Source of the DNA: Candidatus Margulisiibacteriota bacterium
GTDB taxonomy: Bacteria > Margulisbacteria > Termititenacia > Termititenacales > Termititenacaceae
Direction of reading: 5' to 3'
NCBI GenBank assembly: GCA_031268855.1
Contig: JAIRWS010000045.1
Location: forward strand, 1-43,348
Length of the DNA: 43,348 nucleotides
Each line of letters begins with the position of its first letter. The first letter of the stretch is position 1. Below the pieces are notes generated by a model. That model was given only the letters and a program-made list of their open reading frames with translations. It was not told where the DNA came from and ran no database searches. A program made the translations under genes and the position numbers. Below are positions 17,738 through 43,348 of this stretch, piece after piece.

Positions 17738-17986
17738 TTAATTGAGCCAGATAATTTTCTGCCCGCGCCAATCCAGCTCATATTTTTTCAGGCCGGAAAA
17801 ATCGCTGACCCTGTCCGCCTGGTTTAACTCGCTGCGGTTGAGGATAATTTCCTTCTCTTGATAATACTCTGTCGCTTCACGCAGACCGCGCGCGTAGCCG
17901 CGCTGCCAGAGCAGAAAAAAACTGAAGAGCAGCGCCAAAATCCCCAGCACGATAATCAATTCCAAATACGAATAGGCGTGTTTCAT
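17738..17986 (-). CDS. type IV pilin-like / pseudopilin protein (82 aa)
   Basis: From the internal ATG at 17986, which overlaps the upstream stop as ATGA: MKHA|YSYLELIIVLGILALLFS, with Glu at +5 after the predicted cleavage. The track ORF starts 4 codons earlier (17998). Confidence 0.6.
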   Translation of the reverse strand: MKHAYSYLELIIVLGILALLFSFFLLWQRGYARGLREATEYYQEKEIILNRSELNQADRVSDFSGLKKYELDWRGQKIIWLN

Positions 17987-23834: not shown

Positions 23835-24221
23835 TTAGACTTTTTTCAATGCGCCGCTTTCCGATATAATTTTTTCTCTGGCTTGCCAATCTATCGGCAG
23901 CAGTCTGCCGTCTTCAGCAATATGATAATACACATTAGAGCCGCGGCCAATTTCGATAACATCACCGCGGTAAACTACCCGGCCTTCATCGCTGATAGAA
24001 TCAACATCGTCGTTGTCTAAATAAAATATTTTCAGTTTATATCTTTCGCCGTTGATCGCTAAAGTCAGCGCAATATTTTTGTTATACTTGCAGTACATTC
24101 GTCCCGTGTAAACACCATCACACATGGGTTGACGGACAGCCTTGGTAACACTGAACCAGAATACCAATCCAGCCAGCAAAACAACCAGCATACCCCCAAA
24201 TAATTTTTTATTTATCGTCAT
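23835..24221 (-). CDS. membrane-anchored NlpE-N-terminal-like (lipocalin-like) domain protein
   Basis: Start at the second ATG (24221), 7 nt after AAAGGAGG: [23 protein letters not shown]. Then [27 protein letters not shown].., a paralogue pattern of the next gene. Confidence 0.55.
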
Positions 24222-24480
24222 AGTTTTGCCTCCTTTCATAACTTCGTTCGTAATTTTGCTAAATATTCGTCTTACCTCCTCTCAAATAGTTGTGAGTTTT
24301 TCATGCTAACATTTCAGATACAAAATTAGCAATACGGGGATTACTTTTGAGTAAGTTCCCTTGCCTCGGAAAGCCAGGATTTATTAACAGGGCAATAGGA
24401 TTATCAATATATAATGGGTTTTTATTCAGGATACACCGGGTCTGCTGGCGCAAGCCCGGCGTATTTAAACTGCGCGCACG

Positions 24481-24855
24481 TTATTGCCAGATTTCGTAAA
24501 GCGAATAATCCAGCTTTGATCTAATTCTTTTGCCCTGCGGGTCCAGCAGACGCAGCTCCTGGCTGCTGCGCGTCTCATACAAAGAATCGCCGATCTGCAA
24601 AACATTTTTGCGGACATAGACGAGCCGGCCCTGGGTCACGGTTGGAACTTTTTGCTTATTGACAAACTTGGCGCTCAAAGTATATTCGCCGTTTTTAATG
24701 TTGAGCGTCGTGGCAATGCCGCTGTCGTCCGCCGCCGGCAACACGCCGAAAAACACACCCACAGCATCCTGCTCAAGATTTTTGGCAAAATCCGCTTTGC
24801 AGCCCGTCAAAAAAACCAAAGCTAGAAGACAAAACAAAACCTTTCGTATAAACAT
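24481..24855 (-). CDS. lipoprotein with an NlpE-N-terminal-like domain (CXXC replaced)
   Basis: Start ATG 24855, 6 nt after AAGGAGGTG. Lipobox MFIRKVLFCLLALVFLTG|C. FFGVLPAADDSGIATTLNIKNGEYTL parallels the NlpE Y.G.LPCADC.GI...L.L motif. Confidence 0.65.
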   Translation of the reverse strand: MFIRKVLFCLLALVFLTGCKADFAKNLEQDAVGVFFGVLPAADDSGIATTLNIKNGEYTLSAKFVNKQKVPTVTQGRLVYVRKNVLQIGDSLYETRSSQELRLLDPQGKRIRSKLDYSLYEIWQ

Positions 24856-24882
24856 AAGAAGCACCTCCTTTCCAGTCTAAGT

Positions 24883-24985: not shown

Positions 24986-26044
24986 TTATAGTTTATTAAG
25001 CCTCTCTGACAAATCATTTATAATGCTTCTCATTTTCCCTTTTACAGCTTCAGGAAAGTTAAAATTTTCATAAAACCATTGAGCTTTTTCAGAATATTTT
25101 ATGGCAATTTCCAGATATTCTTTACATCTACTTATTTCTTTCACTACTAAATACTTGTAATGCTTAGCAAGAACTTCATATAAATAGGGATTATCTGGAT
25201 CGTATCCCAGCACTGTATTAATCTGCGCTACCCCATTCTTAATCTCTTCTAATGACTTCTCTTTTAGCAGCTCATCATGCTGTAACCCTACCGAATCCGC
25301 CAATAGTGCCCAAAAGTCAACTTTACGGCTATAAAACTTATTTTTATGCAACGCGCCCGGCACACCGTATTCTGTAGTGGGTTCCTTTATTTCCTCTCCG
25401 GCTACAGCAAAACAATGCACGCCTATTTCATTATCTTTTTTTGTCCAAGCAAGATAAAGTTCGGTGTGTTCTCTCAAGACAGACATGACCAGATAAAAAA
25501 GCAACGCTAACGGCTTGCAATCTGCTTGTTTATAGTATCCTGAATTGTCAAAGGTTGCGCCAGTTAATATTCGATGACAAAGTCCGGTAAAAGTTCTATT
25601 TTTAATATCATATTTTTCAATATATTCTTTCCGTTTTCCCATAAGAATACTATTATGATCCGCTAAGGTCATTCGTCCGTTTAAACGTCCTAAAACTTCA
25701 AAAACCACCTTAGCCTTTGGCTTGTTCGGATTCTTGGCAATAACTATTTCACAATTAATTTTCGCTAACTCAAGCACGTCCAGACAATTCACTACAGTCA
25801 GCCAATCTTTGGCTCCATCTGTTAACGCAAAAGCAACCACTACCGCTGAAGCATGTCCGATTTCTTTTTCTAAAATCGCAATAAATTGCCGAAATTTTTT
25901 TTCACCATATTCACTAAGAGAAAAATCACTCAAATATAATCCTTGTTCCTGGGCAATTTTTTTGACCACAGCTATCTGGTTTATTATTGCTGTATTGAAT
26001 ATCTCCCGCAAATGTTCATCTTCGGCAACGTTTTTCAAATACAT
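24986..26044 (-). CDS. hypothetical protein (352 aa), last gene of the AT-rich cluster
   Basis: Intact ORF with GAGG 9 nt before the ATG and AT-rich codon usage like the three genes upstream. No signal peptide and no motif I recognise. Confidence 0.6.
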   Translation of the reverse strand: MYLKNVAEDEHLREIFNTAIINQIAVVKKIAQEQGLYLSDFSLSEYGEKKFRQFIAILEKEIGHASAVVVAFALTDGAKDWLTVVNCLDVLELAKINCEIVIAKNPNKPKAKVVFEVLGRLNGRMTLADHNSILMGKRKEYIEKYDIKNRTFTGLCHRILTGATFDNSGYYKQADCKPLALLFYLVMSVLREHTELYLAWTKKDNEIGVHCFAVAGEEIKEPTTEYGVPGALHKNKFYSRKVDFWALLADSVGLQHDELLKEKSLEEIKNGVAQINTVLGYDPDNPYLYEVLAKHYKYLVVKEISRCKEYLEIAIKYSEKAQWFYENFNFPEAVKGKMRSIINDLSERLNKL

Positions 26045-26122
26045 ACCTGGTACCTCTACAAAGATATCGTCGGTTTTTAAGAAAAGTTGCGGGCTTTTCT
26101 TGGGGTATTCTTTAGTATTCTT

Positions 26123-28462
26123 TTAAGAATAGGCTTCAATCAAAGCCTCGAGAAAATCGCGGTCTATCGTCCACTGCAGCATAAATTCAGCAGGGCGCAG
26201 ATCTTGATTGACGCGCCAGACGGCCTGCGAGGTATTCCAGTCCATGTAGCCGCGCTTGAGCGGGATGAAAACTTCCAGCAAAGCGTCATTCTCCAGTGGA
26301 GAAAACTCCACACTTTTGATCTTTTCCGCTAATTTGCGGCCGTCCAGAAAAGTGATCGTTTGTAGCAACTCTTCCACCATCGGTTTGGCCGCCGGATATT
26401 TGCCGTTGACACACAAAATATCGATCTCTGGATACATTTCGGACTCCAATTGATCGCGCAGGGATTCCAGCTCATTTTTGATATATTGTTTACGCTCCTC
26501 GGTACCGGCTTCGGGATTATAATACTCGCCGATCAGCATGCCGGACTTGATCGAGCCGTAGCCGCTTTTGAGGAGCATTTCCTGCAAAGCCGCGATAAAG
26601 GGGTCTTTTTCACCGTCATAACTGATCGATATCTCATAGGGTTTGTTATGCATAATTTCCGTAAATCTGGCCTGTACTTTTTCCTGCACGGTTTCCGGCA
26701 TTTTCATCGCCGAGCAGGCCACGCGCACTGCCGCCGCGCTGTCCACTTCCGGCAAAAGCTGTATCAGCCCGATTTCTCTGGCACGGTCTACAATGTATTT
26801 CCGCAGAGAGTTTTTATATTTTTCTTCCTGACCTTTGGTAATTACTTTAAGTATCATTTGTTCCAGCGCAGAGGCTTCTTCATCTTGAGCCGCGCGAAAC
26901 TGTTCCCAGCCAGTTTTGGAAAACTGCTTAAGATAGGCCACAATATTGATCCAAAACGGAGGATATAGATACAGCTCTTCCAGCGGCTTAGCGTTTCTAC
27001 TATTCTGGTAAAGTTTATATACTTCTTTTTCTAGCATCTTATAGTTCGCTTTATGAATACCAATCTCATACACGGCTGTATAGATAATATTTAAAAGCTT
27101 AGTCAATAAAGCTTTGTATCTTTTCTGCAAGAAAGCGTAAATTTGATCTTTTTCTCTGCCTAACCGTTCAAAATCTACGGAACCATCTGTTTTAATAAAA
27201 TACAGAGCTAAACCTACTAACACATTACTCATCAAGCTCATAAACTCTTCTGTTTCATCAACAAACCAATTATCGGATATATAGACATATAAATCCCGTG
27301 AAGCTCGTTGAGTGTCCTTATCAGCTAATTCTGCAAAACGGGTAAACGCGCCCTTACGTGCGTCCCGCGCCGGCGCCCAATCCGCCAAGGCCTCAATTAA
27401 AACAGTGCCCACTCCTTCTCCCTCTGGAAAATTATTCCGAAAAGCATTATGAATCGGCTCCATATCTATAAAAGACACATGGTGCCCCATCTCGTGCCAG
27501 AGTATTCCGTCAATCATTTCCTCAATAAATAGTTCTTTAATATTCAGTACATCTGCAGTTTTCCGCGCACCGTAAAAAGTTAATGCTTTTTCTTTAATAC
27601 CTTCGCGCAGCGCGGAATTCACATGATGCAGCGCGTGTTTGCGTTCGGCTTTGGACTGGTCAAAGAATTTCTGCCATTTGTTAAAGAAGATAACCTCGCA
27701 GGCCTCACGGCGAATCATAGTTATATCTTTATAAACCTCTGCCGCCACGGACAAAACAAACTGTGGAGAACGGATATATTCTTTTTGGATGATACAAGCT
27801 TTATTTCCTAGTAAATCTTTCTCGTCTACTTCGCCAAAAATGTAACGCAGGCCGTATGGCCTGCTATGGGTATAAAACAAATAATAATCAACATCCAGCA
27901 AATCCAGAAAATCATTGATATAAGCAAAATCAATATTCGGATATTTACGGCCAAAAATATCCAATGCGTATTCTTTACGAACATAATTTAAATAAGCGTC
28001 GCCCGATTTACTGCCCTGCCGTTTGTCGCATTCGTCTAAGATTCTGCGGAAACGATCGGCATCAAATTGTGTGACCTCACGGTTATTGGGAATATTCAAA
28101 ATATTCCGGCAAAAAGAAATGGAAACTCTTTGCTCCCCCATAGGGCCAAAGTCTTTGCGTTTGTCCATGGATAAATAAATCAGCAAGGCTAGCTCTTTTA
28201 ACTCCCGGTAAAGATATTCTTTGACAAATTCTCGAATAGAATGAAGTTCTTCTGCTTGTTTATCGGGTTGTTTAATTCTTTTAGCAACCAGTTTCGTTAA
28301 TTGTCTATCTTCTAAAGAACGCGCGTCATCCTGAAGCGCGGCGCCGTATTTGACGCTAAACTGCTCATGCAGTTTTTTTAACTCGTTATCCGTCGATTTG
28401 CTGTATATAGATATTTCCACTAAGAACCCCTGAGTAATTTTAACACATTTAAATTTAAACAA
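26123..28462 (-). CDS. HExxH zinc-metallopeptidase-like protein (gluzincin/MA-clan pattern), 779 aa; start possibly GTG 28420
   Basis: ILWHEMGHHV (HEMGHH = 27479..27496) followed 29 residues after the second zinc-ligand His (H327) by LIEALADWAP (third-ligand Glu pattern). No signal peptide. The TTG at 28462 lies inside the T-tract of the upstream terminator, whereas GTG 28420 has AGGGG 6 nt upstream. Confidence 0.65.
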   Translation of the reverse strand: MFKFKCVKITQGFLVEISIYSKSTDNELKKLHEQFSVKYGAALQDDARSLEDRQLTKLVAKRIKQPDKQAEELHSIREFVKEYLYRELKELALLIYLSMDKRKDFGPMGEQRVSISFCRNILNIPNNREVTQFDADRFRRILDECDKRQGSKSGDAYLNYVRKEYALDIFGRKYPNIDFAYINDFLDLLDVDYYLFYTHSRPYGLRYIFGEVDEKDLLGNKACIIQKEYIRSPQFVLSVAAEVYKDITMIRREACEVIFFNKWQKFFDQSKAERKHALHHVNSALREGIKEKALTFYGARKTADVLNIKELFIEEMIDGILWHEMGHHVSFIDMEPIHNAFRNNFPEGEGVGTVLIEALADWAPARDARKGAFTRFAELADKDTQRASRDLYVYISDNWFVDETEEFMSLMSNVLVGLALYFIKTDGSVDFERLGREKDQIYAFLQKRYKALLTKLLNIIYTAVYEIGIHKANYKMLEKEVYKLYQNSRNAKPLEELYLYPPFWINIVAYLKQFSKTGWEQFRAAQDEEASALEQMILKVITKGQEEKYKNSLRKYIVDRAREIGLIQLLPEVDSAAAVRVACSAMKMPETVQEKVQARFTEIMHNKPYEISISYDGEKDPFIAALQEMLLKSGYGSIKSGMLIGEYYNPEAGTEERKQYIKNELESLRDQLESEMYPEIDILCVNGKYPAAKPMVEELLQTITFLDGRKLAEKIKSVEFSPLENDALLEVFIPLKRGYMDWNTSQAVWRVNQDLRPAEFMLQWTIDRDFLEALIEAYS

Positions 28463-28492
28463 AAGAAAGGGTGTCTTAAAAAGACACCCTTT
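28457..28492 (-). terminator. Rho-independent terminator/attenuator between the 181-aa gene and the HExxH gene
   Basis: On the minus strand there is a 12-bp perfect stem (aaagggtgtctt / aagacacccttt, 28466..28492) with a 3-nt loop, followed by cttttgttt. It is preceded by a T8 run. Confidence 0.6.
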
Positions 28493-28520
28493 AAAAAAAA
28501 GCCCTTAAACTTCTACAAAA

Positions 28521-29066
28521 TCAGTTAGGGTCTGCAACAGTACCTGCTGCGTCAGTCTCCACCTTATCTGCCATTGCCGCGGCGCTTGCAACATGGGCTT
28601 CTAAATCAACGCCAGCGAGCGGGTTGACGGCTGTTTCGTTGCGGACTTCTTGGGTAGCAACGGCTTCGCCGCTGGTAACCCTAAAACCACTACTACGGGT
28701 AGCAACCGCTCTTTCAGCCTCTATAAATCCCGCTTGCTCACGCCATGTTTTTACTGTATCAGCAGACGGAATCGGATCGCCAACACCTATAATCACATTA
28801 TAGTTTTTCAGCGCGACTAGTCCAAAACGTCCTAACTCTGTGTTATTGAGCATGCCATCTTGATTAACCAAGCTGCTAACATCCTTGCCTTCTTTTTCTA
28901 AAGCATCTAACAAAGCGATTACCTTAGCTTGGTTCTCAGTTGCCAGCGCTACTTGACCAAGAACATTCAACGCGTTAGCCGCAATTCCAACATTCGCGCT
29001 TATCCGGGCAAACGAAGCAAACCTCGCTGCCACATCTAAAAATTTTACAAATCCTTCTATTGCCAT
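28521..29066 (-). CDS. hypothetical protein (181 aa): helical N-terminal half and Ala/Thr/Val-rich C-terminal half
   Basis: Strong SD (AAGGAG 8 nt before the ATG), 140 nt downstream of the giant ORF stop. No signal peptide or recognisable motif. Confidence 0.6.
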   Translation of the reverse strand: MAIEGFVKFLDVAARFASFARISANVGIAANALNVLGQVALATENQAKVIALLDALEKEGKDVSSLVNQDGMLNNTELGRFGLVALKNYNVIIGVGDPIPSADTVKTWREQAGFIEAERAVATRSSGFRVTSGEAVATQEVRNETAVNPLAGVDLEAHVASAAAMADKVETDAAGTVADPN

Positions 29067-29206
29067 GATCTTTCTCCTTTATTTTTTATTTTTATTCTAA
29101 AACAAAATATATTGACTAACTAAAGTACTTCACCTCCGTTTAAATTAAAAATACTTTTTTTATCTTCATAATTATATCGTAAGTAACTCAAAATTGTTTC
29201 ATTTTT

Positions 29207-32200
29207 TTAGCTCTGGCCAGCGGGCAGTTTTAAGGCTTGTCCGGGGTGTATTATATAAGGTTCGCTAATATTATTAAGGCGAGCTATATCCTGCCAGCGC
29301 AAGCCAAACTTCTGGCCAATCCTAGACAGATTATCGCCGCTAACCACTGTGTACGTTTCCGGTCTTTCGATCGAAACCACAGTACGTACCCCATCTACAT
29401 AAAGCAGCAGATTATCCAAAAGCGTCTGGAGATAATCGGCGCAAGCAGACTGCTCTTCTTTGCCCGAATTTCGTAAACCAGCAACGGTCTGCTCTAAATG
29501 CCGTTTATTTGGATCGACAAAACGCATCCTAGAACTCACACAAGTTTGCACAAACTGGCGGGCAGGTTCGCCCATAGTTAAAAGCAAAGTCTGCATCAGC
29601 AGTGGCGAACGGATAACCAGAGACTCTATTTTCCAACGATAAGCCGGATTATCCACATATACCGCATAAAGACTGCCGGCCAGCTCTTGCACAGCTTCTG
29701 CGGATAGGCTGTCTGTTTTTTGTAGCAGCCAGCTTATAGACAATCCATAATCATCTCTATGTGCCATGATTTCATTTACGGTCGCTATATTGTTCAACAC
29801 CAAAAAGGCATCAAAGTCCTCTTCATGATAAGGAAATCGATTTTCATTGCGTTGTGCTATTGTCAAACGATTAAATTGTAAATTATTCCTGCTCGGCTTT
29901 TTGCCTTCCGCGAGCATAACCACACACTCAGCTAGCTGCCCGCTAAAAGATGTCCCTATTATTGTTCTCACAATATCAGCTTTATTAGCAGAAACTAAAT
30001 CAAACTGCTGAATTTGCCGCAAAATGCCGACTAGCTGCAGTGTATCCACAGCCGCCGTTCCGCAAACTGTATTTATGGCGCTAACTAAATCTTTATAAGC
30101 CAAATACACTTTTGTTATATCAGGCGGCTGGCCGAGATCTGTATAACCCAATCCTTTAAGCATATCTATTGTTTCGTTGGTATGCATTGCGGCATAATTT
30201 TTCTGAAAATATTGATAATCCAGCAAAACGTTTATGACCTCTGCGGCTTCCGCGTTTTCTGGTATCAAGCGCAGGGCAATCATCTGGCTGCGAATTTTAT
30301 TATAGTTATTGAGATCAGCCTGCCCGGGATTAAAAGAAGTTTCTTCCAGCGTAAACCGGCTGGCTATTGGGGTTTGGTTTCTGAGAAATTGAAAAGCAGA
30401 CCTGATTAACTCTTTGTTTTGCTGTTCTCCGGCATCATTTGCGAAACCCATGACAGAAAGCAAATAGTCTGAATCCGAATAAATATTGTTTAATAAATCT
30501 TTAGTCGTGTTAAATTTAGCAGATCTGCTCAAAACTGCCGACTGTTCTGCAGGAATCACACTACCGTTTAACGGCTCTTTAGCTCTGGCCGCAGCCTGCG
30601 CCGGAGTATCCGCTTGTTTCACTTCTATCGCGGCTTGATTGAGTATTCGAGGCGGAAGCATATCCAATGGAATATAAACAGGCTGATTAGACTGCAATAC
30701 GCTATCTATATTTAACCCATTTGTGTACAAAAATACATTTATTATTTCCGCTCTCTGCTCTTCCGGTACAGAAAAACCTCTCAAAAACAATTGCTCAATA
30801 TAATTCACCGCTTTCATTCCAGCCTGCTCTGGACTGACCATGCATCTTACTGAATAGCTGCGCAGAGTCCCTATCCTGTTTATATCATTAATCATTGCCC
30901 TATTAAGTATCGTGTTATCAATAAAATATTCCGTTGACATATTGACGCCGCCGCTCAGCCGCGCGGCAAAACCAATCTCACCATTTAGATATTTACGTAT
31001 ATTTTCCCTTTGAGCCGCTTTGTTAGCGCCGCTCCAATGAATAATTAAGGCAGAAATTATTTCTAGCATTTTCTTAGCTTCTGTTCTTCTTTTAGTTTCT
31101 TCATCGTTAAATTTCGCCAATTCATTCCTGTCAGCGGCAATTTCCGGCGGAGGAGTCGGCAGAGCAGAGTTAGCGAAAGCTGTCCAGGCATCTCTGCGGC
31201 TGGTGTTGCCGTCAATACATTCCAGCGCAATCAAAGTGCTCTCCATAAACAGCGCGGCGTTATCCGAGCCAGCTCTGGACAAACTCCAGTTGTCGCCAAG
31301 CTCGGCCATAGCCTGTGTATCCGTTGCCACAGAAAAAGTTCCCGACTGGCTCAATCTAAAATCAAAAAACTCTTGCAGCCGCTGGTTTGGATCGAGTCCT
31401 AATACATCCAATCCGTAAGAAACGTTTGTTCCCAAAAAGCCCACTGGCAAACGGCCAACTAAAATATTTCCAAAAAAATCCGCCAGCTCTCTTTGAGACA
31501 AGGGCGGATTAGCGCGAAGTTTTTCATCTGTTTGTTTTCTAATTTCCGCTAAAATAGCGTCGTTAGCATAGGACCTGCTATTGATTGTCGGGGATTGACT
31601 TCTTTCCAGAATCGCCCACGTCATAAAGCTATTAAACAATTCATTATTCGCGGCAAAAAGACCTACAGGCTGCTCTGTCCGTAGCAAATCCTTCATCGTC
31701 GGTTTTTGATTGGTAGAATTTAGTGGGTCAAGAGTATGCGGAATTTGCACTCTAGCACAACGCAATGTATTGGCGTCTACCGTAACGCCATATTTTGCCA
31801 TATTTCTAATAAATGCCGCATCGCTCGGCGCTTCAGTCCTGCCATGTGGGACCAGTTTTAACCACGCGGACCTGGCATAATCTCGGCCAATACCAGGAAT
31901 GATATTGGTCAGAAAATACCGATATTCATTTTTAGTTAAACTAGCAAAAGGGCGCACGGACTCCGAGCTGCCAGCTACTGTATCTGTTAAAAATCCTGCG
32001 CTGCCGACAGCTAATTGCGGATATTTAGCGCCAAAAAGCCGCATGGCATTGGACATTACAAATTCAAAAAATTTGGCTTTGCTCTGGACGCCTTCTGTTC
32101 CGGTGGTGACCACAGCATTGTCGCCGTCCTGCCCAAACATAGTAAGAGTGCCGACCAAATTCACCGTATCGCTGATTATCGGAACAGTATTATAAAAATT

Positions 32201-35200: not shown

Positions 35201-38200
35201 AGCTTTACCGAATTTAGCCGAATAGGCTTCGCTGACTATCCGGCCAAATTCTTCCGCCGAAGCAGGCATTTTATCCAGCGGCAAATCCAGACGAGTTAAA
35301 TCGCGCAGTTCGGATTGAAGATAGCTTTCTCTGGTAACTGTGGAGCTTTGTTCATAAATTCCTTTGCTCAACATTTCACGGATATCCTGCAAGCCCCTGT
35401 CCGCCGTAAAAGAATTATTTAACATACTAGCCATTCTGCGGACGATTTCTTGTCGTTCAATAACCTGCCGTGTCATTTCATCAGGCTGTATATTATTGAT
35501 TCCACTTTGATTGATATGGCTCATTGCTGCTCTGGCGATTGAAGACACCAAGCCAAGCTCTGTTCTGCTCCAAAGATGCTGCAAAGCCGCGACTTCGTCC
35601 GCAGTTAAACGTTGTCCGTCCGGCACAGACGGCGCGCTCATCTTGGCCAGCTCAGTTTGGAATTTCTCTACAAACTCATATTTTGCATCATTCGGCGCGG
35701 CGCCATCCATAAAAAGGTCGCTGATTTTTTCCCATTGCATATTTCCGCCGGTGTATGTCTTTATGGTGTCACGCAGAGCCGTAGAATCAACTTCTGCCGT
35801 ATAGCGGTCTCCATTGCGCGGCTTCGGCAACACGTCAGGCGAAATACCAACTCTTTTATAAAGGTCATCTGTAATACTCGACAAAACATAAACGCTGCCT
35901 CCGGCTGAAGCGCGGTCTACACGGTTCAAAGCTTGAATATAATCCGCCAATCCGCCAGCCGGTTTTTCATACATAATCATATCAAAGGCTTTTATCTCAA
36001 AAGTTTCCGTCTTACTTAGATCTCTCTGTCCAAACTCTTGAGCGTTTAGTTTTGACAATCCTTCTTGTTCGGCGCCGTCTCTTACCATTTCCAGACCGGC
36101 CAGCGATTCGGCCAGTTTTAGCTTGGCCTCCGCATCTTTAGTTTTATTATATTCACTCCGCGTATCAGCTATTAGCTTGTTTATGGTTTCTACGAGTGTC
36201 AGCGTTGAATTTCTGGGATTAGCCAGCACATCCTTTACTAATTGCGCCGCTTCGTTATAACTTTTGGCCGGAGACCAATCCACGCCTCTGCCGCCTAGAT
36301 TGGTCATCAACACAATCGCGCCCGCTTGTCTGGTCTTTCTAACTATAGCGCGCAGGGTTTTTGGATCTGCATCATGATCATATATGTATATTCCGTTCTT
36401 CTCTAATGTTTCTAGACCTTTCTGACTTATTTCTTCTATTCCTTTTTTATTTTTGGTTATTGCCTCCGGGCAAATCATTCTGACAATTTCAATTATTTTT
36501 TTCGGATCGGGACAATATACACCCATTGAATTAGCGTTAGTTGCCGTTCTATAAGTATTAATTAGTCTCTGAAATTCTGCATCTCTAGCCTCTCTTGTGG
36601 CAAAAACTTCATCATAAACATCCATTCGCGCTTCGGCGATTTTATTTACAGCCACTACATTTTTGTTATAAGGATCGTATGATGCGCCCGTTATTGACGC
36701 CGTGCCGGAAGCTCCAGCAAAATTTCCGTTAGAACTAATATAACGCAGCATAGTACTGACCAGCATAGAATCAGAATCCGACCGTGACACCACAAACAAA
36801 CCAGCTTTATCAATTAAGTTCGGGTGTCCATCTGGGGCCAGTTCTCTGGCTTCCAGCGCGCCCTGTAGTCCGCCGAAAAATTCAAAACCCCACTCGCGGT
36901 TGTACCGGCTGCCGAAATTTGCTTCATCGGTATACTTGCTCAATAATACTATGCCAGTCTGGCGGGTCTGTTGGTCAACATCAACTTTATAATCTGTGCC
37001 GTAACGCATATCATTGCGCACGCGCAAACTATGCACCAGCTGGGTTTCCACCAGAAAACGAAATTCCTCCATAGATAAAGCTGTTATGCCTTTTTTAGCG
37101 TTATATTTACCCAGCACTTTAGTGTCCAGCTCATTAGCCTTAATAAGCTCCGGCAAACGATTAGTAACAAAATCCGCCCATTTAGTAGCGTCCTCGACTT
37201 CCAAACGTCCGGCTAAATTAAGTTTTAGACCGCACTCGTTTAATTTTAAACCCTGCACAATCTTATCAATAGTAGTGCAGAAAAGGGCTTGCAAGGCAGA
37301 CGGTTTGCCGGAAATTTGCGATATTTTGTAAGGAGTCATCGCTTGTTTGGCGGTCAACACATCTATCTCATCGACAGAGAAGAACAATTTACTCATATCG
37401 CCAAAAACAGTTTTTAGTCCCATCAGTTCCGCGCTGCGGTCGGACAGCAGTTGAAAACCCAGAGAACGGTTTGACATATAGACAAAATCGCTTTTGGCAA
37501 AGGCATCCGCAGCATTGGCGGCGTTTCTATTGTCAAAATTAAAATGCTGAACCTTTACATCATAGCCAAGCATAACCTTAAAATAACCGCCGTGCTTCAG
37601 CACATCAGCTCTGCCATCTGACGCTAAAATCTCGCTGGATGTAACGATAATTGCTTTCTGGCCGGAGAAAATTTTTAACATGCCAGCCATCTGCAAAATA
37701 ATTGTCTTGCCTTCGCCGCAGGGAGCGTCCAAAATCTTGCCGTTGTTGATAACCAGCATACCAAGCGTCTGCATATTATTGACCCTGAATCCTATTTCAG
37801 ATCCCACTAAAATACCTGCTGGGTTTTTACCGGGACCGGCTTTATACATAATGTAATCGTCTAACGTGCGGGAAGGATTTTTGGCAAAAAACTCGTCCAT
37901 GTCGCTTATATCTACTTTAAATCTACTCCGCAGATCCACCGTGCCGTTCCTGTTTTTACTCCATTCAGCATTTAGATCAGAACGCCAGTAAGCCTCTCTA
38001 GACAACGCGATAAATTCCGCAATGCGCACCTGATCAGCAGGGTCATTAAAATCCGGAGGCCTCCGGCCGATCTCTGTTCTAATTCGCTCTACTGCGTCTA
38101 ATAACTCGCCGTTATTCATTTTGGCAAAACCAGGAACGACTCTTTCCTGCGTAACACCATTTATCTCATAAGTAATTCGCCCGCCCAGTTCATATACACC

Positions 38201-41200
38201 CACATTTCTGTTGGTTTGCGCATATTCTGACTTCTCTAATTGATAACGGTTTAGATTGGATTGAAAAGTTTCCATAACATTGAAAGTGCTAAGCGCGTCC
38301 CCTGAAAAATCCAGAACGCGCGTAGAATTTGTCTGCTGAAATTCCAAATTGGCCGGACGCAAGTAAGTTTCTATGGCCTGCCCTTTTATCACTTCAAAAA
38401 TTTCTTGCAGCTCTTTAGGAAAACCCTGCAAAACTCCAGAATCGTTCATCGACACCACATAATGCTTCCCGCCAAAATCAAAATGTAACCCTGGTTTTGT
38501 TGCCGCCGACGCGCCACCGTGAATGATCTTAACGTCGCTGGCTCCCTTGTTCTTTAAATTTGTAACAAAAGCCATCGTTGTGGTCGGAGCGGATTCAGTC
38601 AAAGCTCTAATATAGGAATCTGTTACCGCTCTCTGCAAATCAATCTGTGGGTCAGTTTTAATCTGTTTATCCAACCCATCAAAGAAAAGCCTGGCTCTTA
38701 TCGGATTAGTGTCGCCGCCCAAATCGTTATACACTTTTTGCCAATCATATTTGGCTTCTGTCAGGGCAGCGCGCGCCTGTTCTGGTGGCTCATAAACCGC
38801 TGGCTGCTTTGGAAAAAAATTCTCCACTCTTGCAGCAGCTTCATTAACAACTGTCTGCGCGCGCATAGTGTCATTGGTTTGAACAGCCTCGATAAAATCT
38901 CGTCCCATAACCAGGTTTAAAGCCGAAGTATCTGCATTGGGCAAACCAGAGGAGGCCCGCCATTCAAATATCGTCCGTCCCAGAGAAGGATCTATTTCTA
39001 TCGAGGATAATAAAGCTGTGCGGCCATTTTCTTCCACCTGCCAGAGACCGCCTTCGACTTTTTTGAAACGCGCGTCGCCTGAATTTTCCAGATACGCCGG
39101 TAGCATCTCGCCGAATAATTGCAGTGTGACTTCGTTTCCTGCCAGACGGTAAGCGTCAGTATTCCGGAGGAGCTCTGCCGCGGTGCTTTTTTCCGCGTCA
39201 TCAAGATTGGTTTCTGCATATTGATATAGGTCATTTAATGTCTTGATCTGTTCCAAGCCCAGACGGCTGCTATAATTATCTCCCAAACGGTTTTTCACGC
39301 CGCTTATTACATCCCTTATATTCACTTCTATATTGGTATAAAATTTTCCAGTGGCTGGATTTTGCGAAAAAGACACCCGTCCAGGCGTTTCCAGCACAGG
39401 CAGACTTTGATAACGCCCGCGCGGGTTAACTACAGCTGCATTGACTGTCTTATTAGACAAACGAAATGGCACATAGAAAGCAGCTAAAAAATTCCTGCCG
39501 ATTGCATGAAGTCCATATTTCACAACACTCAGTTTATATTTCCAGTTGGGAATGCTGGAGCCGTCCGGTGCCAATGTAGAGGGCATAGGGATTGGATTTT
39601 TAGACTCTACCGTATAAGACCTTCTAAAAAGTCTGCCGATAAGCGGTATTTGCGCAAGCAAGCGATGCTGCGGGCGAAGCTGCGTATAGGCTCCGTCCGT
39701 AAAGGCTTCAGTATTGCCATTGAGGCTATTCACAATTTCCCGTGAGGCGGCGGCCAGTCCTTCCGGCGTTTTTAACCAATTTCGGCGTTCTCTATTAGCA
39801 AAAATCCCATAGTTATTTCTTGTTTTGACCAATAGATACTCTAAATCAACATTGCCGTACAAACCTTTTAGATAATTACCAATGATGGTTTTAGCCGCTC
39901 CCATGCTTCTGGCTTCCACTTCAATATCGCGGCCGTCAACCATAAAAACAAATTTGCTGTTTTTGCCAACTACCGGAAGCGATTTTAGAACTATAGCACT
40001 GCGCTGAATGGAACTAGCCGTTATTTTTGTAAGCATATTTATATAAAAAACCGCGAATACATAATTGGAAATCGCGTCGGCAAGACCAGCTCCAATTGCT
40101 CCATTCTGAAACTCTTGCCTCGTCTCCATTGTCATCATGACAAACATATCGGGCGCATTCCAGGGCAAAAGCATACTCAAGGTATTCATAATTGTATTGA
40201 ACGCTTCCTCGCGCTTAGCCGGATCTCCTGATTGCAGTATCTCCAAAGCCGATTTCAAAATGCCAGCCATTGCGGCAAAAGGTGATGCTAAATTTGACAA
40301 TGACGTTAATCCGAAATCTTTAAGATGATTCCTATCATTTTGAACTAATTTAACTTTCTGCGCCGACTGATCAGAAATATATTCATGTACTTCCAGATTT
40401 GAAACGCCAAGCTCGTCAGCTAGATAAATACCAGGAGTCCGAGAAGCATCTGCGCGTTTTGCCAAATAATTTATATACTCCGCATATTCTTCATCGCCGG
40501 CCGTGCCGGCGGCTATAGCAAACATTGTATCGGCTGACTGCACTGGATAAAATTCGGTGAAAAAACTTTCCAGCCATTTAGCTTGAGCGTTTTGTTTTAT
40601 CCAAGCATCCTCATCTTGTATAAGTTGTTCTTTTTCCCCATCATATCGTCCCTCGAAATCAATTTGAGCGGCATTCCACGCTTTAGCTCGCGTCTCATGT
40701 GCCTCTCCTTCTTTTATATAGTGTGCGCTTTCCTCTCTATACCTGTCTCTGTCCAGTAATAATTTTCGTATCATCTCAAAAAACTCTTCACAAGCAAAAC
40801 CATAAGATTCTTTAGCCTCTAATTCAGCATCACTTACAAATTTGTCATCTAGAGAAATTTTCTCGTCATCTATAATAATGTCATCCAGAATTCGATATCC
40901 TCCGCGTTCTTTATCATAGATAAAAAAATTATAAAAATCGGCCAACGCTTTAGCCCCATCGGCAATGCCATACCTATCCTCAATATCAGCCACAACATCC
41001 GGGCTTTGTTCCCTTATCTGCGCCGTGAGCATATTGTAATAATAGTCATAACTGTCCGTTCCAATTGGTGGTAAAACTTTTATTGGTTCGGGCACTTCCA
41101 ATGTAAAAGGTTCTGGCTTATCATTTATATGGGCTTGGTACTCTTCGCTATTGACTAAATCAGTTGGCGTAGCTTCTCCTGTGTAAACAAAATCAGTCGG

Positions 41201-43342
41201 TATTCCCATGTTTTCCAACAGGAGCTTAATAGTAAGCGCATATTTAGTTAGTCCGCCTGGATTATTGACATCCTTAATATTATTGGCTGTTATAAAAAGT
41301 CCCAATGCTATCTGCGCATTCTGGCTGCCGGGATTATAAAGAGCCTCGTTTTCGGCGGCCGTACGCAGAACGTACAATTGTTTATAAAAGTCCAGATCAA
41401 ATCCTGGCACTCCGCGCATTCTGGCTTCCACAGAGGCGACATCCATGTTAAATTGCCTTTCGTTTCCGGGCGCATTTTCCTCTGTATCTATCAGCAATAT
41501 GCCTTCCGAGAATCTAATCATTCCCATCTCGACAATAGCTGTTTGGTCGTCTTCAACTTTAATACTTACCGATGTCCATTCCTTCCAGGCTATTTGTTTC
41601 AAAACCTGTTTTTGTTCATCAGTAAGTTTTCCGTTGTCCCAAATATCCGAACCCAAATCAGCGGGTTCCGGCAAATGGTAATTGCTCTGCACAGCAAGAA
41701 CATCCATTTTCAAATTATCGTCAGCTAATTCACCTTTTGTCGCCAGATATTCACACAAATAGGCTTTGAATAAAGTCAGCGGGCGCGGATCTGTGGTCTT
41801 GCCCAAATGACCGGTCGAAAAATCTGTTCCGGCAAAGTATTTATCATATACAAATTGAGTTAAGGCGTATAAATACCCTCTGGTTTTTTTTAATTGAGAG
41901 TACTTTTCATTCTCAAATAATTCCCGATCCTCCGTCGAAAAAGCTTTCTCTAACGCTGTGTAATCAAAAACAGGCTTGGCCGTATTACCGACTGTTTTAA
42001 AATCATTCCAGAATTTACTATCCTGCGGTTCGCCTAATATTGCTTGAAAAAACAATCCGTCTATTTTGGGTTCATAGACAGTACTCCTAGCTGTTTCAGA
42101 TAAAGCACTGACTGTATTTTCAGTTTGCCGCAAACCTGGAATATTCGGGAGATCAGCCGACGAGGAATGTAGTGTGGAATATTTTAATCCGAGAAGTCTG
42201 AACTCTGAATTATTTATCATACTTAGATTGCGCAGATAAACCCATTGCCTTACAACAATCTCCTGTTTCCGCAGAACATCCATTGCTTCAACTATTTCCT
42301 GCGGATATGAACCGTCTGCCGCAGGATAAATATTAAAACCATTGGTGTGATAATTTTGTCCTGGTTCGCTTTTTAAGTAATTACTGGCCGCTTCCAATTT
42401 TGCCCGCTCTTCAGCAGAAAATGTATTTGCGTAAGCTGCGCCATTTAATAAAGTGTCCAAAAATACTGTGGAGATGGAATCATTGCCTATTTCTGTCAGC
42501 ACTACCGTTTTAGCCTCTTCACTCGTCGCATTGCGGTATACTTCCGCCAAAATTAAACCTTTGAGATAAACCAACGGATATTTTTGATAAAGTTCAGGCG
42601 GAGCAACTACCATTTCAGACAAAACACTCATAGTTGCTTCATGGCTGTAACCAACATCCAGCACTTTTCCTTGAGAACTTCTTATTATTGCTGGATTTTG
42701 CCTCGTTACTACAATCATCCCTTCCGGCAGCTCCGCTAAACTTTCCACAAAAGCCCGAACAACTTCCGGCGTAACCTGCGCGTAAACAAACGCTTCTTTG
42801 ATATAATCACTGTTGCTAACAAAAGCTTCAGCAAAATCCCGCAGCAGCCGGATAGTGCTAATATCCCTGTCTCCGGCTAAAAACCTTACAGCGGCTTTAT
42901 CTTCAGCGCCGACAGCATCGCTCGGACGGCTGGCTCCCTGATTGTGGCTGGTTTCCATTGCTTCCGCCATACCCAAAATATACTTCTGCACGTTGGACAG
43001 ACTTTCATTAAGTAGAGCAAAAATCTCGTCATTGATTTTATCCAAACCGACGTTTTGAATATTTTTACCGTTGGCGGTTAATAATTCCTGCGCAAACCAA
43101 ACAAGCTCCGCATTATGAAAATCATTTTTCTGCAATAAAGCTCTTACTAAAATTGCGTTTTCCAAGGGACTAATTTCTTGACCATTATTAAGTTTGGCAA
43201 CAATTTGCGCTTGCACAACAGAGCCGGATAACAACGTATTTAAAACTCGTTCATATCTGGGCTTTTCTGCGGCAGAGATTTTGCCGTCATTAGCAAATCC
43301 ATTTATAGTTAAATCATACCGCGGCACCCTCAAATCTGACAT
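29207..43342 (-). CDS. giant multidomain protein (at least 4711 aa) with an internal SecA-like ATPase motor, a hydrophobic segment cluster and a C-terminal LysM domain
   Basis: Uninterrupted 14.1-kb ORF. The 6 nt between the ATG at 43342 and the window edge contain no stop, so the N-terminus may lie outside the window. SecA-like motifs occur at aa ~1840-2499, and LysM at aa 4664-4707 (YTVVSGDNLSRIGQKFGLRWQDIARLNNISEPYIIHPGQALKLP). Confidence 0.9.
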   Translation of the reverse strand: MSDLRVPRYDLTINGFANDGKISAAEKPRYERVLNTLLSGSVVQAQIVAKLNNGQEISPLENAILVRALLQKNDFHNAELVWFAQELLTANGKNIQNVGLDKINDEIFALLNESLSNVQKYILGMAEAMETSHNQGASRPSDAVGAEDKAAVRFLAGDRDISTIRLLRDFAEAFVSNSDYIKEAFVYAQVTPEVVRAFVESLAELPEGMIVVTRQNPAIIRSSQGKVLDVGYSHEATMSVLSEMVVAPPELYQKYPLVYLKGLILAEVYRNATSEEAKTVVLTEIGNDSISTVFLDTLLNGAAYANTFSAEERAKLEAASNYLKSEPGQNYHTNGFNIYPAADGSYPQEIVEAMDVLRKQEIVVRQWVYLRNLSMINNSEFRLLGLKYSTLHSSSADLPNIPGLRQTENTVSALSETARSTVYEPKIDGLFFQAILGEPQDSKFWNDFKTVGNTAKPVFDYTALEKAFSTEDRELFENEKYSQLKKTRGYLYALTQFVYDKYFAGTDFSTGHLGKTTDPRPLTLFKAYLCEYLATKGELADDNLKMDVLAVQSNYHLPEPADLGSDIWDNGKLTDEQKQVLKQIAWKEWTSVSIKVEDDQTAIVEMGMIRFSEGILLIDTEENAPGNERQFNMDVASVEARMRGVPGFDLDFYKQLYVLRTAAENEALYNPGSQNAQIALGLFITANNIKDVNNPGGLTKYALTIKLLLENMGIPTDFVYTGEATPTDLVNSEEYQAHINDKPEPFTLEVPEPIKVLPPIGTDSYDYYYNMLTAQIREQSPDVVADIEDRYGIADGAKALADFYNFFIYDKERGGYRILDDIIIDDEKISLDDKFVSDAELEAKESYGFACEEFFEMIRKLLLDRDRYREESAHYIKEGEAHETRAKAWNAAQIDFEGRYDGEKEQLIQDEDAWIKQNAQAKWLESFFTEFYPVQSADTMFAIAAGTAGDEEYAEYINYLAKRADASRTPGIYLADELGVSNLEVHEYISDQSAQKVKLVQNDRNHLKDFGLTSLSNLASPFAAMAGILKSALEILQSGDPAKREEAFNTIMNTLSMLLPWNAPDMFVMMTMETRQEFQNGAIGAGLADAISNYVFAVFYINMLTKITASSIQRSAIVLKSLPVVGKNSKFVFMVDGRDIEVEARSMGAAKTIIGNYLKGLYGNVDLEYLLVKTRNNYGIFANRERRNWLKTPEGLAAASREIVNSLNGNTEAFTDGAYTQLRPQHRLLAQIPLIGRLFRRSYTVESKNPIPMPSTLAPDGSSIPNWKYKLSVVKYGLHAIGRNFLAAFYVPFRLSNKTVNAAVVNPRGRYQSLPVLETPGRVSFSQNPATGKFYTNIEVNIRDVISGVKNRLGDNYSSRLGLEQIKTLNDLYQYAETNLDDAEKSTAAELLRNTDAYRLAGNEVTLQLFGEMLPAYLENSGDARFKKVEGGLWQVEENGRTALLSSIEIDPSLGRTIFEWRASSGLPNADTSALNLVMGRDFIEAVQTNDTMRAQTVVNEAAARVENFFPKQPAVYEPPEQARAALTEAKYDWQKVYNDLGGDTNPIRARLFFDGLDKQIKTDPQIDLQRAVTDSYIRALTESAPTTTMAFVTNLKNKGASDVKIIHGGASAATKPGLHFDFGGKHYVVSMNDSGVLQGFPKELQEIFEVIKGQAIETYLRPANLEFQQTNSTRVLDFSGDALSTFNVMETFQSNLNRYQLEKSEYAQTNRNVGVYELGGRITYEINGVTQERVVPGFAKMNNGELLDAVERIRTEIGRRPPDFNDPADQVRIAEFIALSREAYWRSDLNAEWSKNRNGTVDLRSRFKVDISDMDEFFAKNPSRTLDDYIMYKAGPGKNPAGILVGSEIGFRVNNMQTLGMLVINNGKILDAPCGEGKTIILQMAGMLKIFSGQKAIIVTSSEILASDGRADVLKHGGYFKVMLGYDVKVQHFNFDNRNAANAADAFAKSDFVYMSNRSLGFQLLSDRSAELMGLKTVFGDMSKLFFSVDEIDVLTAKQAMTPYKISQISGKPSALQALFCTTIDKIVQGLKLNECGLKLNLAGRLEVEDATKWADFVTNRLPELIKANELDTKVLGKYNAKKGITALSMEEFRFLVETQLVHSLRVRNDMRYGTDYKVDVDQQTRQTGIVLLSKYTDEANFGSRYNREWGFEFFGGLQGALEARELAPDGHPNLIDKAGLFVVSRSDSDSMLVSTMLRYISSNGNFAGASGTASITGASYDPYNKNVVAVNKIAEARMDVYDEVFATREARDAEFQRLINTYRTATNANSMGVYCPDPKKIIEIVRMICPEAITKNKKGIEEISQKGLETLEKNGIYIYDHDADPKTLRAIVRKTRQAGAIVLMTNLGGRGVDWSPAKSYNEAAQLVKDVLANPRNSTLTLVETINKLIADTRSEYNKTKDAEAKLKLAESLAGLEMVRDGAEQEGLSKLNAQEFGQRDLSKTETFEIKAFDMIMYEKPAGGLADYIQALNRVDRASAGGSVYVLSSITDDLYKRVGISPDVLPKPRNGDRYTAEVDSTALRDTIKTYTGGNMQWEKISDLFMDGAAPNDAKYEFVEKFQTELAKMSAPSVPDGQRLTADEVAALQHLWSRTELGLVSSIARAAMSHINQSGINNIQPDEMTRQVIERQEIVRRMASMLNNSFTADRGLQDIREMLSKGIYEQSSTVTRESYLQSELRDLTRLDLPLDKMPASAEEFGRIVSEAYSAKFGKAIPAEMLARAKNIFNESVNPREAFLRMETARLLDLKLGAEKIPVSYNEYINFVNSKYFDAHGYIVPREGLDHLGTLGVTGANVRAYIAALEEAGDNYLKLRQERGTSRIAGDESGAEQDARSLSALDLYLRNCQEILNAFYHNLIGNKEAGALGVRRGQRTTKYNFDGNLTVHGRQDNPIPAGMRRLGDRVASRQYRDVFVLSTADGRELRFSSEEEAWRAYNNVDTADVNRNAASNPADVPPARNSQLDGIARKNPNTELPVILIYDKNKQLERVIEPEASKVLKLGEIDFPQGRTMADLYTTLRAAQAAEHPAEAVKTTIIGFYGERVDALFRNLSDAAIKDLQALEWKDSCVALPAFKNIADAIGGRLAHIHPGGESASEVDITNGRMDVLYRAADGWKLITLETNYAKSNDPSDFLLAGRTAIDVVGPLNVEIRPDTAEILRVEVPGQRTAGVNPEIEDVTNQIRNLIRDVNASDAETLRSLNQAVLSPAMALLLERITLLENNKPAETAGQAVKDKYASDLQAAKDEYERLHREIAERHLDRLSPDLRGKLGQFYSKAVGRIDAAQGAFILGLALSAFNTFIRPNGEWAGNSSLEEGEFERRVANWLIGIPDNTGFGVMCSIRDDLATDISLSVVNHLLGGNAIVKPAELGALLFRDKESGKLKILKESLGKNAKGYASYLAVAFPALFLGGYFMEGPLKAINNPECLARAASTDPYEQMKFQAELSLACMSEGLANLAFEIPGMIMSAIIPSPLSKGVMKLVSLLRSFAGVGAVMGLGYVMDKVYFEPNRNKAFKDIDEERTRNQELGIAPPPALTLEEVNRNFDSLNFKTTVTRNAMHTASGVVLIRSLTYTVPKLLGYTGKVLPVAGQIMMGLQVGNWLASSAEAAFAPRTLEKDMQANIYASLDRSMTMRRFFDIKYSKGVRPMQFEVARWFEDMGFLADIRETLCAMVPNIQRQEIVEGFVVRSWTDKETFDAMWEDFIAALRSGDINAQRNFYNTVPIISDTVNLVGTLTMFGQDGDNAVVTTGTEGVQSKAKFFEFVMSNAMRLFGAKYPQLAVGSAGFLTDTVAGSSESVRPFASLTKNEYRYFLTNIIPGIGRDYARSAWLKLVPHGRTEAPSDAAFIRNMAKYGVTVDANTLRCARVQIPHTLDPLNSTNQKPTMKDLLRTEQPVGLFAANNELFNSFMTWAILERSQSPTINSRSYANDAILAEIRKQTDEKLRANPPLSQRELADFFGNILVGRLPVGFLGTNVSYGLDVLGLDPNQRLQEFFDFRLSQSGTFSVATDTQAMAELGDNWSLSRAGSDNAALFMESTLIALECIDGNTSRRDAWTAFANSALPTPPPEIAADRNELAKFNDEETKRRTEAKKMLEIISALIIHWSGANKAAQRENIRKYLNGEIGFAARLSGGVNMSTEYFIDNTILNRAMINDINRIGTLRSYSVRCMVSPEQAGMKAVNYIEQLFLRGFSVPEEQRAEIINVFLYTNGLNIDSVLQSNQPVYIPLDMLPPRILNQAAIEVKQADTPAQAAARAKEPLNGSVIPAEQSAVLSRSAKFNTTKDLLNNIYSDSDYLLSVMGFANDAGEQQNKELIRSAFQFLRNQTPIASRFTLEETSFNPGQADLNNYNKIRSQMIALRLIPENAEAAEVINVLLDYQYFQKNYAAMHTNETIDMLKGLGYTDLGQPPDITKVYLAYKDLVSAINTVCGTAAVDTLQLVGILRQIQQFDLVSANKADIVRTIIGTSFSGQLAECVVMLAEGKKPSRNNLQFNRLTIAQRNENRFPYHEEDFDAFLVLNNIATVNEIMAHRDDYGLSISWLLQKTDSLSAEAVQELAGSLYAVYVDNPAYRWKIESLVIRSPLLMQTLLLTMGEPARQFVQTCVSSRMRFVDPNKRHLEQTVAGLRNSGKEEQSACADYLQTLLDNLLLYVDGVRTVVSIERPETYTVVSGDNLSRIGQKFGLRWQDIARLNNISEPYIIHPGQALKLPAGQS

Positions 43343-43348
43343 AAAAAT

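Follow-up and report, generated by a model that had tools for sequence, protein, structure and literature searches.

A conserved cassette joining a giant protein with a SecA-type motor, a hypervariable small protein and a predicted metallopeptidase in Candidatus Termititenax-like Margulisiibacteriota

A cassette of four genes lies in a 43,348-nucleotide stretch of DNA (contig JAIRWS010000045.1, analysed over its whole length and hereafter called the window) from a Candidatus Termititenax-like member of the Margulisiibacteriota of the termite gut, a placement obtained through homologues of the HExxH protein that the cassette encodes. The four open reading frames (ORFs) are co-directional and lie on the minus strand, as do all the cassette features given below: a giant gene (29207-43342), a small gene (28521-29066), the gene of the HExxH protein (26123-28462), which we call the zincin, and a variable fourth gene (24986-26044), with a hairpin between the small gene and the zincin gene. 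The remainder of the window is ordinary chromosome and includes aroA, gap, an amidase gene, serA, lspA, pgk and the gene of an NlpE-like lipoprotein. The GC content is 0.36-0.48 in the cassette genes against 0.49-0.55 in the core genes, and at third codon positions (GC3) it is 0.41 in the giant gene and 0.39, 0.45 and 0.31 in the other three. An earlier interpretation of this DNA, made from the letters alone (the sequence-only reading), had described the four genes and the hairpin, an AT-rich cluster set against the core, and SecA-like, LysM and HExxH signatures. The analysis bears out each of these: genes and hairpin are where they had been placed, GC3 is 0.31-0.45 in the cassette against 0.57-0.67 in the core genes, and the signatures are a Pfam SecA_DEAD match at 3e-16, a LysM match at 3e-14 and the motif HEMGH. 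No signal peptide was seen on any cassette protein by inspection by eye and hydropathy only.

The giant ORF continues without an in-frame stop up to the edge of the window, and its length had been given as 4,711 aa or more. Its first ATG, at 43342, starts the product MSDLRVPRYD... and matches the N-terminal methionine of the full-length homologue P0070 (MTDMRVPGYN...; P numbers designate homologous proteins and L numbers the loci compared) and that of P0068; because this start aligns with the N-termini of homologues, the gene is complete at 4,711 aa and the "plus" can be dropped. The JGI gene call for the same protein (P0067, 4,642 aa) begins 69 residues downstream of this ATG, omitting 43136-43342, and the homologues favour the longer product. 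The probability that a stop-free ORF of this length arises by chance is about 1e-130. The protein is non-repetitive, no internal repeats being found at the protein or the DNA level, and Pfam finds no CAZy or adhesin domains in it. Homology to P0068, P0070, P0071 and P0075 is collinear along the entire length, at 22-29% identity.

The best recognised part of the giant is a SecA-type motor (aa 1822-2575; 35618-37879), delimited by Pfam, hhalign and motifs, which comprises a first nucleotide-binding domain (NBD1), an insert resembling the preprotein cross-linking domain (PPXD) and a second nucleotide-binding domain (NBD2). Pfam SecA_DEAD matches aa 1849-2116 with 60 bits (cut-off 24.6; 3e-16), and SecA chains of the PDB match the motor at 1e-8. 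When a profile of the giants was aligned by hhalign with one of eight canonical SecA proteins, the match had a probability of 99.9% and an E-value of 5e-34 over 633 columns, covering SecA positions 53-709 of 911 and running unbroken through NBD1, the PPXD insert and NBD2. The motifs specific to SecA are kept: GEGKT (Walker A, aa 1876, 37703-37717), VDEID..TPYKIS (VDEID at aa 1990; Walker B DEID, 37361-37372), GGLQGALEARE (36842-36874; GLHQAIEAKE in SecA), GASGTA, and TNLGGRGVD (TNLGGRG at 36284-36304; TNMAGRGTD in SecA). The Pfam SecA_PP_bind model finds no match in the giant, and the NCBIfam models of SecA and SecA2 score 15-62 bits against cut-offs of 725-1,493; since the defining domains are missing and the scores stay below these cut-offs, the giant is neither SecA nor SecA2. 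An exhaustive phmmer search with the motor among 1.84 billion representative sequences returned about 10 giant relatives of 3.5-5.3 thousand amino acids (kaa) and then ordinary SecA at E of about 1e-10; no giants above 5.3 kaa, the 30-kaa class included, stood among its best 150 matches. In locus L009 a second zincin paralogue (771 aa, 31% identity; L009:13721-16036) follows the fourth gene, and a canonical secA (L009:16993-18501) lies just downstream of it, after hpf; the motor of the giant is therefore additional to the housekeeping SecA.

Outside the motor the giant carries two hydrophobic regions, a conserved domain and, at its end, a peptidoglycan-binding domain. Region A (aa 1018-1101; 40040-40291), detected by a Kyte-Doolittle scan, lies about 700-800 aa before the motor, and region B (aa 3282-3499; 32846-33499), recognised by hydropathy and the family alignment, consists of four to five Gly/Ala-rich hydrophobic helices. 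Most of the giants examined have hydrophobic segments on both sides of the motor, and those on the side of region A reach hydropathy scores of up to 2.2. No block of the family is better conserved than region B (IPxNTGFGVxCSIRD, EGLANLAFEIP, GVGAV), which is helical, at low confidence, in an AlphaFold (AF2) model. The stretch between the motor and region B contains a domain (aa 2969-3127; 33962-34438) with E2973, H3086-x-H3088 and D3098, all of them invariant in six giants. In the AF2 model (local predicted local distance difference test, pLDDT, 60-84) the HxH stands at the end of a strand and is followed by a helix, as in JAB-like proteins, with a motif spacing of x6 instead of the usual x7. 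PDB profile search, Pfam and Foldseek gave no JAB/MPN match for this domain, and its candidate JAB/MPN-like metal site is a lead only. The C-terminal LysM domain (aa 4664-4707; 29222-29353) matches Pfam at 3e-14 with 53.1 bits (cut-off 20.9) over profile positions 1-43 of 43, and LysM chains of the PDB match it as well. With the LysM tail of the giant of locus L005 it shares 68% identity, and a LysM is found in four of the eight giants compared (the window giant, P0070, P0071 and P0075).

The small gene encodes a protein of 181 aa with an amphipathic, Ala/Val/Asn-rich N-terminus and an acidic, Ala/Val/Thr-rich tail. A gene of 110-186 codons stands at the same position in every cassette, and BLAST finds no similarity among the small proteins of the different cassettes; in a MAFFT alignment their N-termini resemble each other and are amphipathic (for example GFVKFLD, NIFKVVD and GLFRVVD), and acidic Ala/Val/Thr-rich tails are common. 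The DNA around this gene is conserved. Directly after the stop codon of the giant gene comes an intergenic element (29125-29206) made of a sigma-70-like promoter, TGAAAC...TATAAT with the -10 box at 29171-29176, and a leader block, in which the stretch TTTRAACGGAGGTGAAGTAC (29125-29144) is invariant; promoter-like element and block are kept in six loci with long invariant runs, and the ORF that follows is hypervariable. The leader block shows no conserved RNA fold and no Rfam family. On the other side of the small gene, an intrinsic-terminator-like hairpin with a 12-bp stem and a T-run (28466-28492) is kept in seven loci, with changes on both sides at 7 of the 12 pairs, and the GTG start and GGGG ribosome-binding site of the zincin gene come after it. 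From these signals we predict that the 29125-29206 element acts as a promoter, and that the small gene would be strongly transcribed by itself, with attenuated read-through into the zincin gene.

The zincin is the most conserved component of the cassette. It had been described as a protein of 779 aa; its start is most likely the GTG at 28420, as in all homologues, which gives 765 aa (26123-28420). Comparison with 66 homologues and an AF2 model brings out the motif HEMGH (27482-27496) and a second one, E343-ALAD (27377-27394): H309, E310, G312, H313, E343 and D347 are near-invariant, and H309, E310, H313, E343 and D347 are found in at least 90% of 40 homologues. The model is of high quality (pLDDT 92.3, predicted template-modelling score 0.83) and places both motifs on helices that follow a beta subdomain. 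Searched with Foldseek as a whole, it has no match in PDB or BFVD (best E 0.8 and 0.1), and a PDB profile search returned only fragilysin, around the motif, at E 0.3. Neither Pfam nor NCBIfam nor PHROG places the zincin in a described peptidase family; in these databases and in PADLOC, the small, zincin and fourth proteins have no family match. We read the zincin as a predicted gluzincin-like metallopeptidase of undescribed architecture. Homologues in T. aidoneus, T. persephonae and termite metagenome-assembled genomes (MAGs) are 68-80% identical to it.

The zincin family extends beyond the cassette. A long-form zincin stands without a giant in L003, where TPR proteins, an Amidase_3 protein and a LysM-LysM-Peptidase_M23 protein, all with functions in cell-wall remodelling, are encoded downstream of it (L003:14438-19459). 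Shorter paralogues of about 570-690 aa form tandem pairs without a giant (L008:8252-11764, L023:5766-9242, L016:867-5135), and such short-form pairs occur in termite-gut Treponema, other Margulisiibacteriota, Leptospirales and Desulfobacteraceae MAGs. In one homologue, P0059 (1,350 aa), the zincin is joined to TPR repeats.

The fourth gene encodes 352 aa and has seven Termititenax homologues at 24-49% identity, in which R, Y, C, L, Y, H, E and T are invariant; among these are Cys176 (25517-25519) and His210 (25415-25417), with the Glu coming after both. The C-terminal half is TPR-like, with weak matches to designed TPR proteins at 1e-5. Despite the invariant Cys and His, Pfam and PDB profiles give no match to papain-like, NlpC-P60 or transglutaminase-like peptidases. 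The gene (about 350-480 aa) is homologous across the Termititenax loci, and an unrelated gene takes its position in L003, L009 and L028.

The order giant gene, small gene, hairpin and zincin of about 765 aa is kept in at least eight independent Margulisiibacteriota assemblies, mostly of Ca. Termititenax. The giants of these cassettes measure 4,064 aa in L001, where BLAST-level similarity to the window giant is lacking, at least 3,494 aa in L005, with a LysM tail, 3,922 aa in L006 (T. aidoneus), 4,899 aa in L007 and 5,138 aa in L029 (T. persephonae); the one in L010, a second T. aidoneus copy, is partial. More distant are L009, with a giant of 4,698 aa and a zincin 39% identical, and L028, with a giant of 4,723 aa and a zincin 51% identical, whose motor is the most distant detectable one and barely alignable. 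The low GC3 of the cassette relative to its surroundings recurs in L001, L003, L006 and L007 and not in L009. The neighbours are housekeeping chromosomal genes that change each time (pgk/NlpE in the window, purH-nadA, aroC-grpE-dnaK, hpf-secA elsewhere), and among the called genes flanking the cassette in other loci there are no integrase, transposase or conjugation/transfer families. Co-occurrence holds for giant, small gene, hairpin and zincin, and fails for the fourth gene, which is not conserved outside Termititenax. No relatives were found in 50,697 phage records, in 72,556 plasmids or in IMG/VR, these searches bringing up only ordinary secA genes on megaplasmids; a mobile-element origin was rejected on this ground and for want of a PADLOC match.

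A similar arrangement was observed in a very distant lineage (contig Ga0154521_141, L039:3-8057), where an ORF of at least 2,685 aa, without any Pfam domain, precedes a 396-aa ORF and the gene of a zincin homologue of 27% identity. BLAST finds no similarity between the large ORF and the Termititenax giants; the pairing of a giant gene with a zincin may be more widespread and involve giants that are not related to each other.

The components of the cassette evolve at very different rates: between cassettes the zincins are 68-80% identical, the giants 22-30%, the fourth proteins 24-49%, and the small proteins are beyond BLAST detection. The comparison with L005 shows how far this divergence goes at a single site. 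In the window, the segment 24774-24890, which holds the promoter and the 5' end, with the signal peptide, of the NlpE-like lipoprotein gene, is 100% identical over 117 nt to L005:13784-13900, at the end of that contig, and the identity breaks off sharply at 24890/24891, the boundary of the cassette. Past this point the fourth gene and the giant gene of the two loci are unalignable as DNA, the giants being about 22% identical in amino acids; the zincin genes are 80% identical in nucleotides, and the remaining similarity is limited to the LysM tail (76%) and the intergenic signals. The identical flank beside a divergent cassette therefore indicates the same chromosomal site in a near-identical genome with a very different allele, as far as a flank of 117 nt can tell. 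Alleles thus seem to replace one another at a fixed place in the chromosome, a pattern of loci under diversifying or frequency-dependent selection in which the conserved segments are likely recombination anchors. An identical flank beside unalignable alleles is also what populations show at loci of conflict or recognition. The same observations bear on the concern that the contig might be chimeric at about 24-25 kb: a chimera is unlikely because independent assemblies have the same low-GC cassette beside a high-GC core and because the 100%-identical flank ends at a sharp breakpoint in L005.

The cassette probably acts at the cell envelope or between cells. The reading that we put forward, tentatively and as possible rather than probable, is that of a membrane-embedded envelope or surface machine, driven by its SecA-type motor and under diversifying selection. 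Hydrophobic regions A and B would hold the giant in the cytoplasmic membrane with the motor on the cytoplasmic side, and its last 1,200 or so residues, the LysM included, would be periplasmic and bound to the wall. The motor, in which the SecY-docking two-helix finger was not detected, would thread polypeptide through the membrane in cis, this being the giant's own C-terminal region, the small protein, which would be made abundantly, or both; the zincin, and possibly also the E-HxH-D domain and the Cys-His protein of the fourth gene, would cleave or mature the products. Contacts with other cells or with the wall would be made by the exposed, fast-evolving parts, which would account for the extremely fast evolution of everything except the zincin and for the unrelated alleles at one chromosomal site. 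In favour of such a machine count the SecA-specific features of the motor, the hydrophobic regions flanking it in most giants, the strong conservation of region B, the LysM domain, the synteny of at least eight loci, the signals that bracket the small gene, the contrast in evolutionary rates and the self-export proposed in the preprint discussed below. Going by the title of Utami et al. 2019 (cited in PMC7228121), the cells of Termititenax live fixed to spirochaetes that are themselves ectosymbionts of gut protists; since its closest relatives are Ca. Termititenax, so described, the cassette is a candidate determinant of this cell-cell association.

Several observations weigh against such a machine. 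Regions A and B of the window giant have only moderate hydropathy (Kyte-Doolittle 1.3-1.5) with embedded charges, and in the AF2 model of aa 2955-3705, built from six sequences, the membrane region has low confidence (pLDDT 52.6). The cassette contains no SecY-like channel-forming partner. In the motor, the two-helix finger of the helical scaffold, the helical wing and the C-terminal domains of SecA, with its zinc-binding tail, were not detected, the hhalign alignment ending at position 709 of 911 in low-confidence columns. LysM is absent from P0068, P0073, P0074 and P0076. The peptidase activity of the zincin is predicted from its motifs alone, and its family also occurs without giants (L003, L008, L016, L022, L023), which leaves room for a role independent of the giant. 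The picture of a LysM-terminated giant with a dedicated metallopeptidase, as first drawn, has to be narrowed accordingly, LysM being confined to some members and the zincin family not being confined to giants.

The explanation that competes best with an envelope machine, though we consider it unlikely, is that the giant is a delivered polymorphic effector or toxin, released or injected into neighbours such as the spirochaetes that bear Termititenax or competing cells. Its LysM or C-terminus would bind the wall of the target, region B would insert conditionally into the membrane, the E-HxH-D domain or the zincin would process the protein in the manner of large AB-type toxins, and the small gene would provide immunity or a chaperone. 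Extreme divergence with unalignable alleles at an identical site is typical of conflict loci, the hypervariable small gene comes immediately after the variable C-terminus of the giant, the hydrophobic helices are moderate and carry embedded charges, and GC3 is below that of the core genes; all this would suit an effector. Large clostridial toxins have an enzymatic region, a peptidase, a hydrophobic region and a binding domain in this order, and the similar order within the giant also counts in its favour. Yet Pfam finds no PAAR, VgrG, Rhs, TPS, LXG, RTX or type I secretion (T1SS) signal and no toxin domain, in P0074 and P0076 as well, and a SecA-type ATPase, which needs ATP, makes little sense outside the cell. 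The small gene has its own strong promoter-like element and terminator, unlike a tightly coupled immunity gene, and the divergence spans the whole giant instead of being limited to the C-terminal tip. Among the three functions that the sequence-only reading had offered, the evidence leans to an envelope machine or a cell-cell interaction, without deciding between these two.

A more far-reaching version of the envelope machine would make the giant a self-contained translocase that is independent of SecYEG: motor and clamp would work with a conduit of its own, formed by regions A and B, and with a wall anchor, and the dedicated substrate would be the hypervariable small protein, made in excess and matured by the zincin. 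We hold this to be quite improbable; if it were true, bacteria that live attached to other cells would possess a novel type of machinery for secretion or surface display, maintained by diversifying selection.

Lower still is the likelihood of a cytoplasmic conflict system. In this reading the cassette would be a defence island against phages or plasmids, or it would encode the polyvalent protein of a mobile element now degraded; its superfamily 2 (SF2)-type motor would act on nucleic acid or foreign proteins, with the peptidase-like proteins as effectors. Defence systems and polyvalent proteins commonly include peptidase-like motifs, a TPR region and an ATPase, and the low GC3, the differing chromosomal sites between genomes, the two or more copies in T. 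aidoneus and the replacement of alleles at one site would all fit. None of the four proteins, however, has a PADLOC match, relatives are missing from the phage, plasmid and IMG/VR collections, and the called flanking genes include no integrase, transposase or conjugation family; the motor retains the clamp insert and the motifs specific to SecA, and LysM and the hydrophobic regions point to the envelope.

Finally, it seems just as improbable that the four genes are not one system at all, with a giant that works in the envelope on its own and, by chance downstream of it, a zincin that forms with its neighbours a distinct module for housekeeping or stress. Zincins do occur where there is no giant, both in L003 and in the tandem pairs of Treponema, Leptospirales and Desulfobacteraceae, the promoter-like element and the terminator do split the transcription units, and unrelated genes do replace the fourth gene in distant loci, but the order of giant, small gene, hairpin and long-form zincin is kept in at least eight loci while the surroundings change, low GC3 is common to all four genes, and a giant ORF precedes a zincin again in the very distant L039.

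Some features of the window lie beside or outside the cassette. The NlpE-like gene at its boundary (24481-24864) is the second of two tandem small genes that resemble NlpE-N-domain lipoproteins or membrane proteins, the first lying at 23835-24239. The Pfam NlpE match is confined to the second gene, which has the lipobox LTGC and a true start probably at an ATG near 24858; the first has a low GC content (0.42), as in the cassette. At the other end of the window a tRNA-Asn gene (1278-1351) and, after it, a gene of low GC content (0.38) that encodes a YhcG/DUF1016 PDDEXK nuclease (1761-2765) resemble a small tRNA-side island that seems unrelated to the cassette. The core region also holds envelope genes (10409-13545 and 17983-18856), which encode an AmiC-like protein with AMIN and Amidase_3 domains, a T2SS-T3SS_pil_N protein, a pseudopilin (N_methyl) and an A24 prepilin peptidase. 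These pilus- or T2SS-like genes are 6-17 kb distant from the cassette, and no families of this type are listed among the called genes around other cassettes; for both reasons a link between them and the cassette is probably coincidental.

Compared with known systems, the cassette falls in no described peptidase, toxin or defence family. Gluzincins, such as thermolysin (M4) and neprilysin (M13, with ExxxD), combine HExxH with a downstream Glu, and the modelled zincin appears to share with them an HExxH in a long helix, a near-invariant E343-x-x-x-D347 helix 30 residues further on and a beta-sheet subdomain before the active-site helix. Unlike the known gluzincins, it is a protein of 765 aa with large helical and alpha/beta extensions and with no Foldseek or family match. 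Loci of polymorphic toxins and of large AB toxins resemble the cassette in having hypervariable alleles replaced at one locus, a small variable gene downstream and a putative protease/hydrophobic/binding order; the cassette differs from them in that it has no known trafficking, toxin or immunity domain, in its ATP-dependent SecA-type motor and in a divergence that affects the whole protein. By analogy with the accessory Sec system, the motor could be a SecA-type ATPase devoted to a single, very large surface protein. In contrast to SecA and SecA2, however, the motor is embedded at aa 1822-2575 of a 4,711-aa protein, and the cassette has no SecY2 or Asp genes.

The closest precedent in design is found in the passages of a recent preprint that concern giant proteins of Omnitrophota ("Archaeovorin", "Dockerin-type") and some Actinobacteriota, with divergent SecA DEAD and preprotein-binding domains, without scaffold and wing, and with transmembrane regions (West-Roberts et al., bioRxiv 10.1101/2023.11.21.568195). 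In those passages the SecA-like domains are proposed to serve the export of the giant itself, a role at the surface or in the cell wall is suggested, no member is described as experimentally studied, and Margulisbacteria are named only as a phylum rich in very large genes. As far as the same passages describe them, these giants share with the window family a motor inside a very large protein, without scaffold and wing, with hydrophobic regions nearby, and divergent and fast-evolving, as well as a separate canonical secA in the genome (beside the cassette in L009). Unlike them, with their 30-85 kaa, the window giant has 4.7 kaa, some ten times less and near the lower limit of the sizes called "very large" there; it is non-repetitive and has no glycosyl-transferase, hydrolase, dockerin or beta-helix content. 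Nor does it share the T2SS genes that lie close to those giants, the pilus- or T2SS-like genes of the window being 6-17 kb away and without counterparts at the other loci. It also has fixed partners (small gene, hairpin and zincin) and, in some members, a LysM tail, and neither is mentioned in the passages in question. The motors of the window family are no closer to those of the preprint than to ordinary SecA, as no giants above 5.3 kaa stood among the best 150 matches.

The design principle of the cassette thus matches that of the giant SecA-domain proteins without close kinship. The sequence-only reading was right that no curated family or known system covers the cassette, and went too far in seeing no precedent for it, given the preprint portions cited above; the cassette is less unprecedented than first supposed, yet real, conserved, tractable and unexplained. 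Giant SecA-domain genes are a recently recognised class, and the window family is a compact version of it, of 14 kb and with about 10 known relatives, which ties a SecA-like motor to a peptidoglycan-binding tail, a conserved zinc-peptidase-like protein of unmatched fold and a hypervariable small protein; because it is compact, non-repetitive and has a fixed set of partners, it is more tractable than the Omnitrophota proteins of 30-85 kaa.

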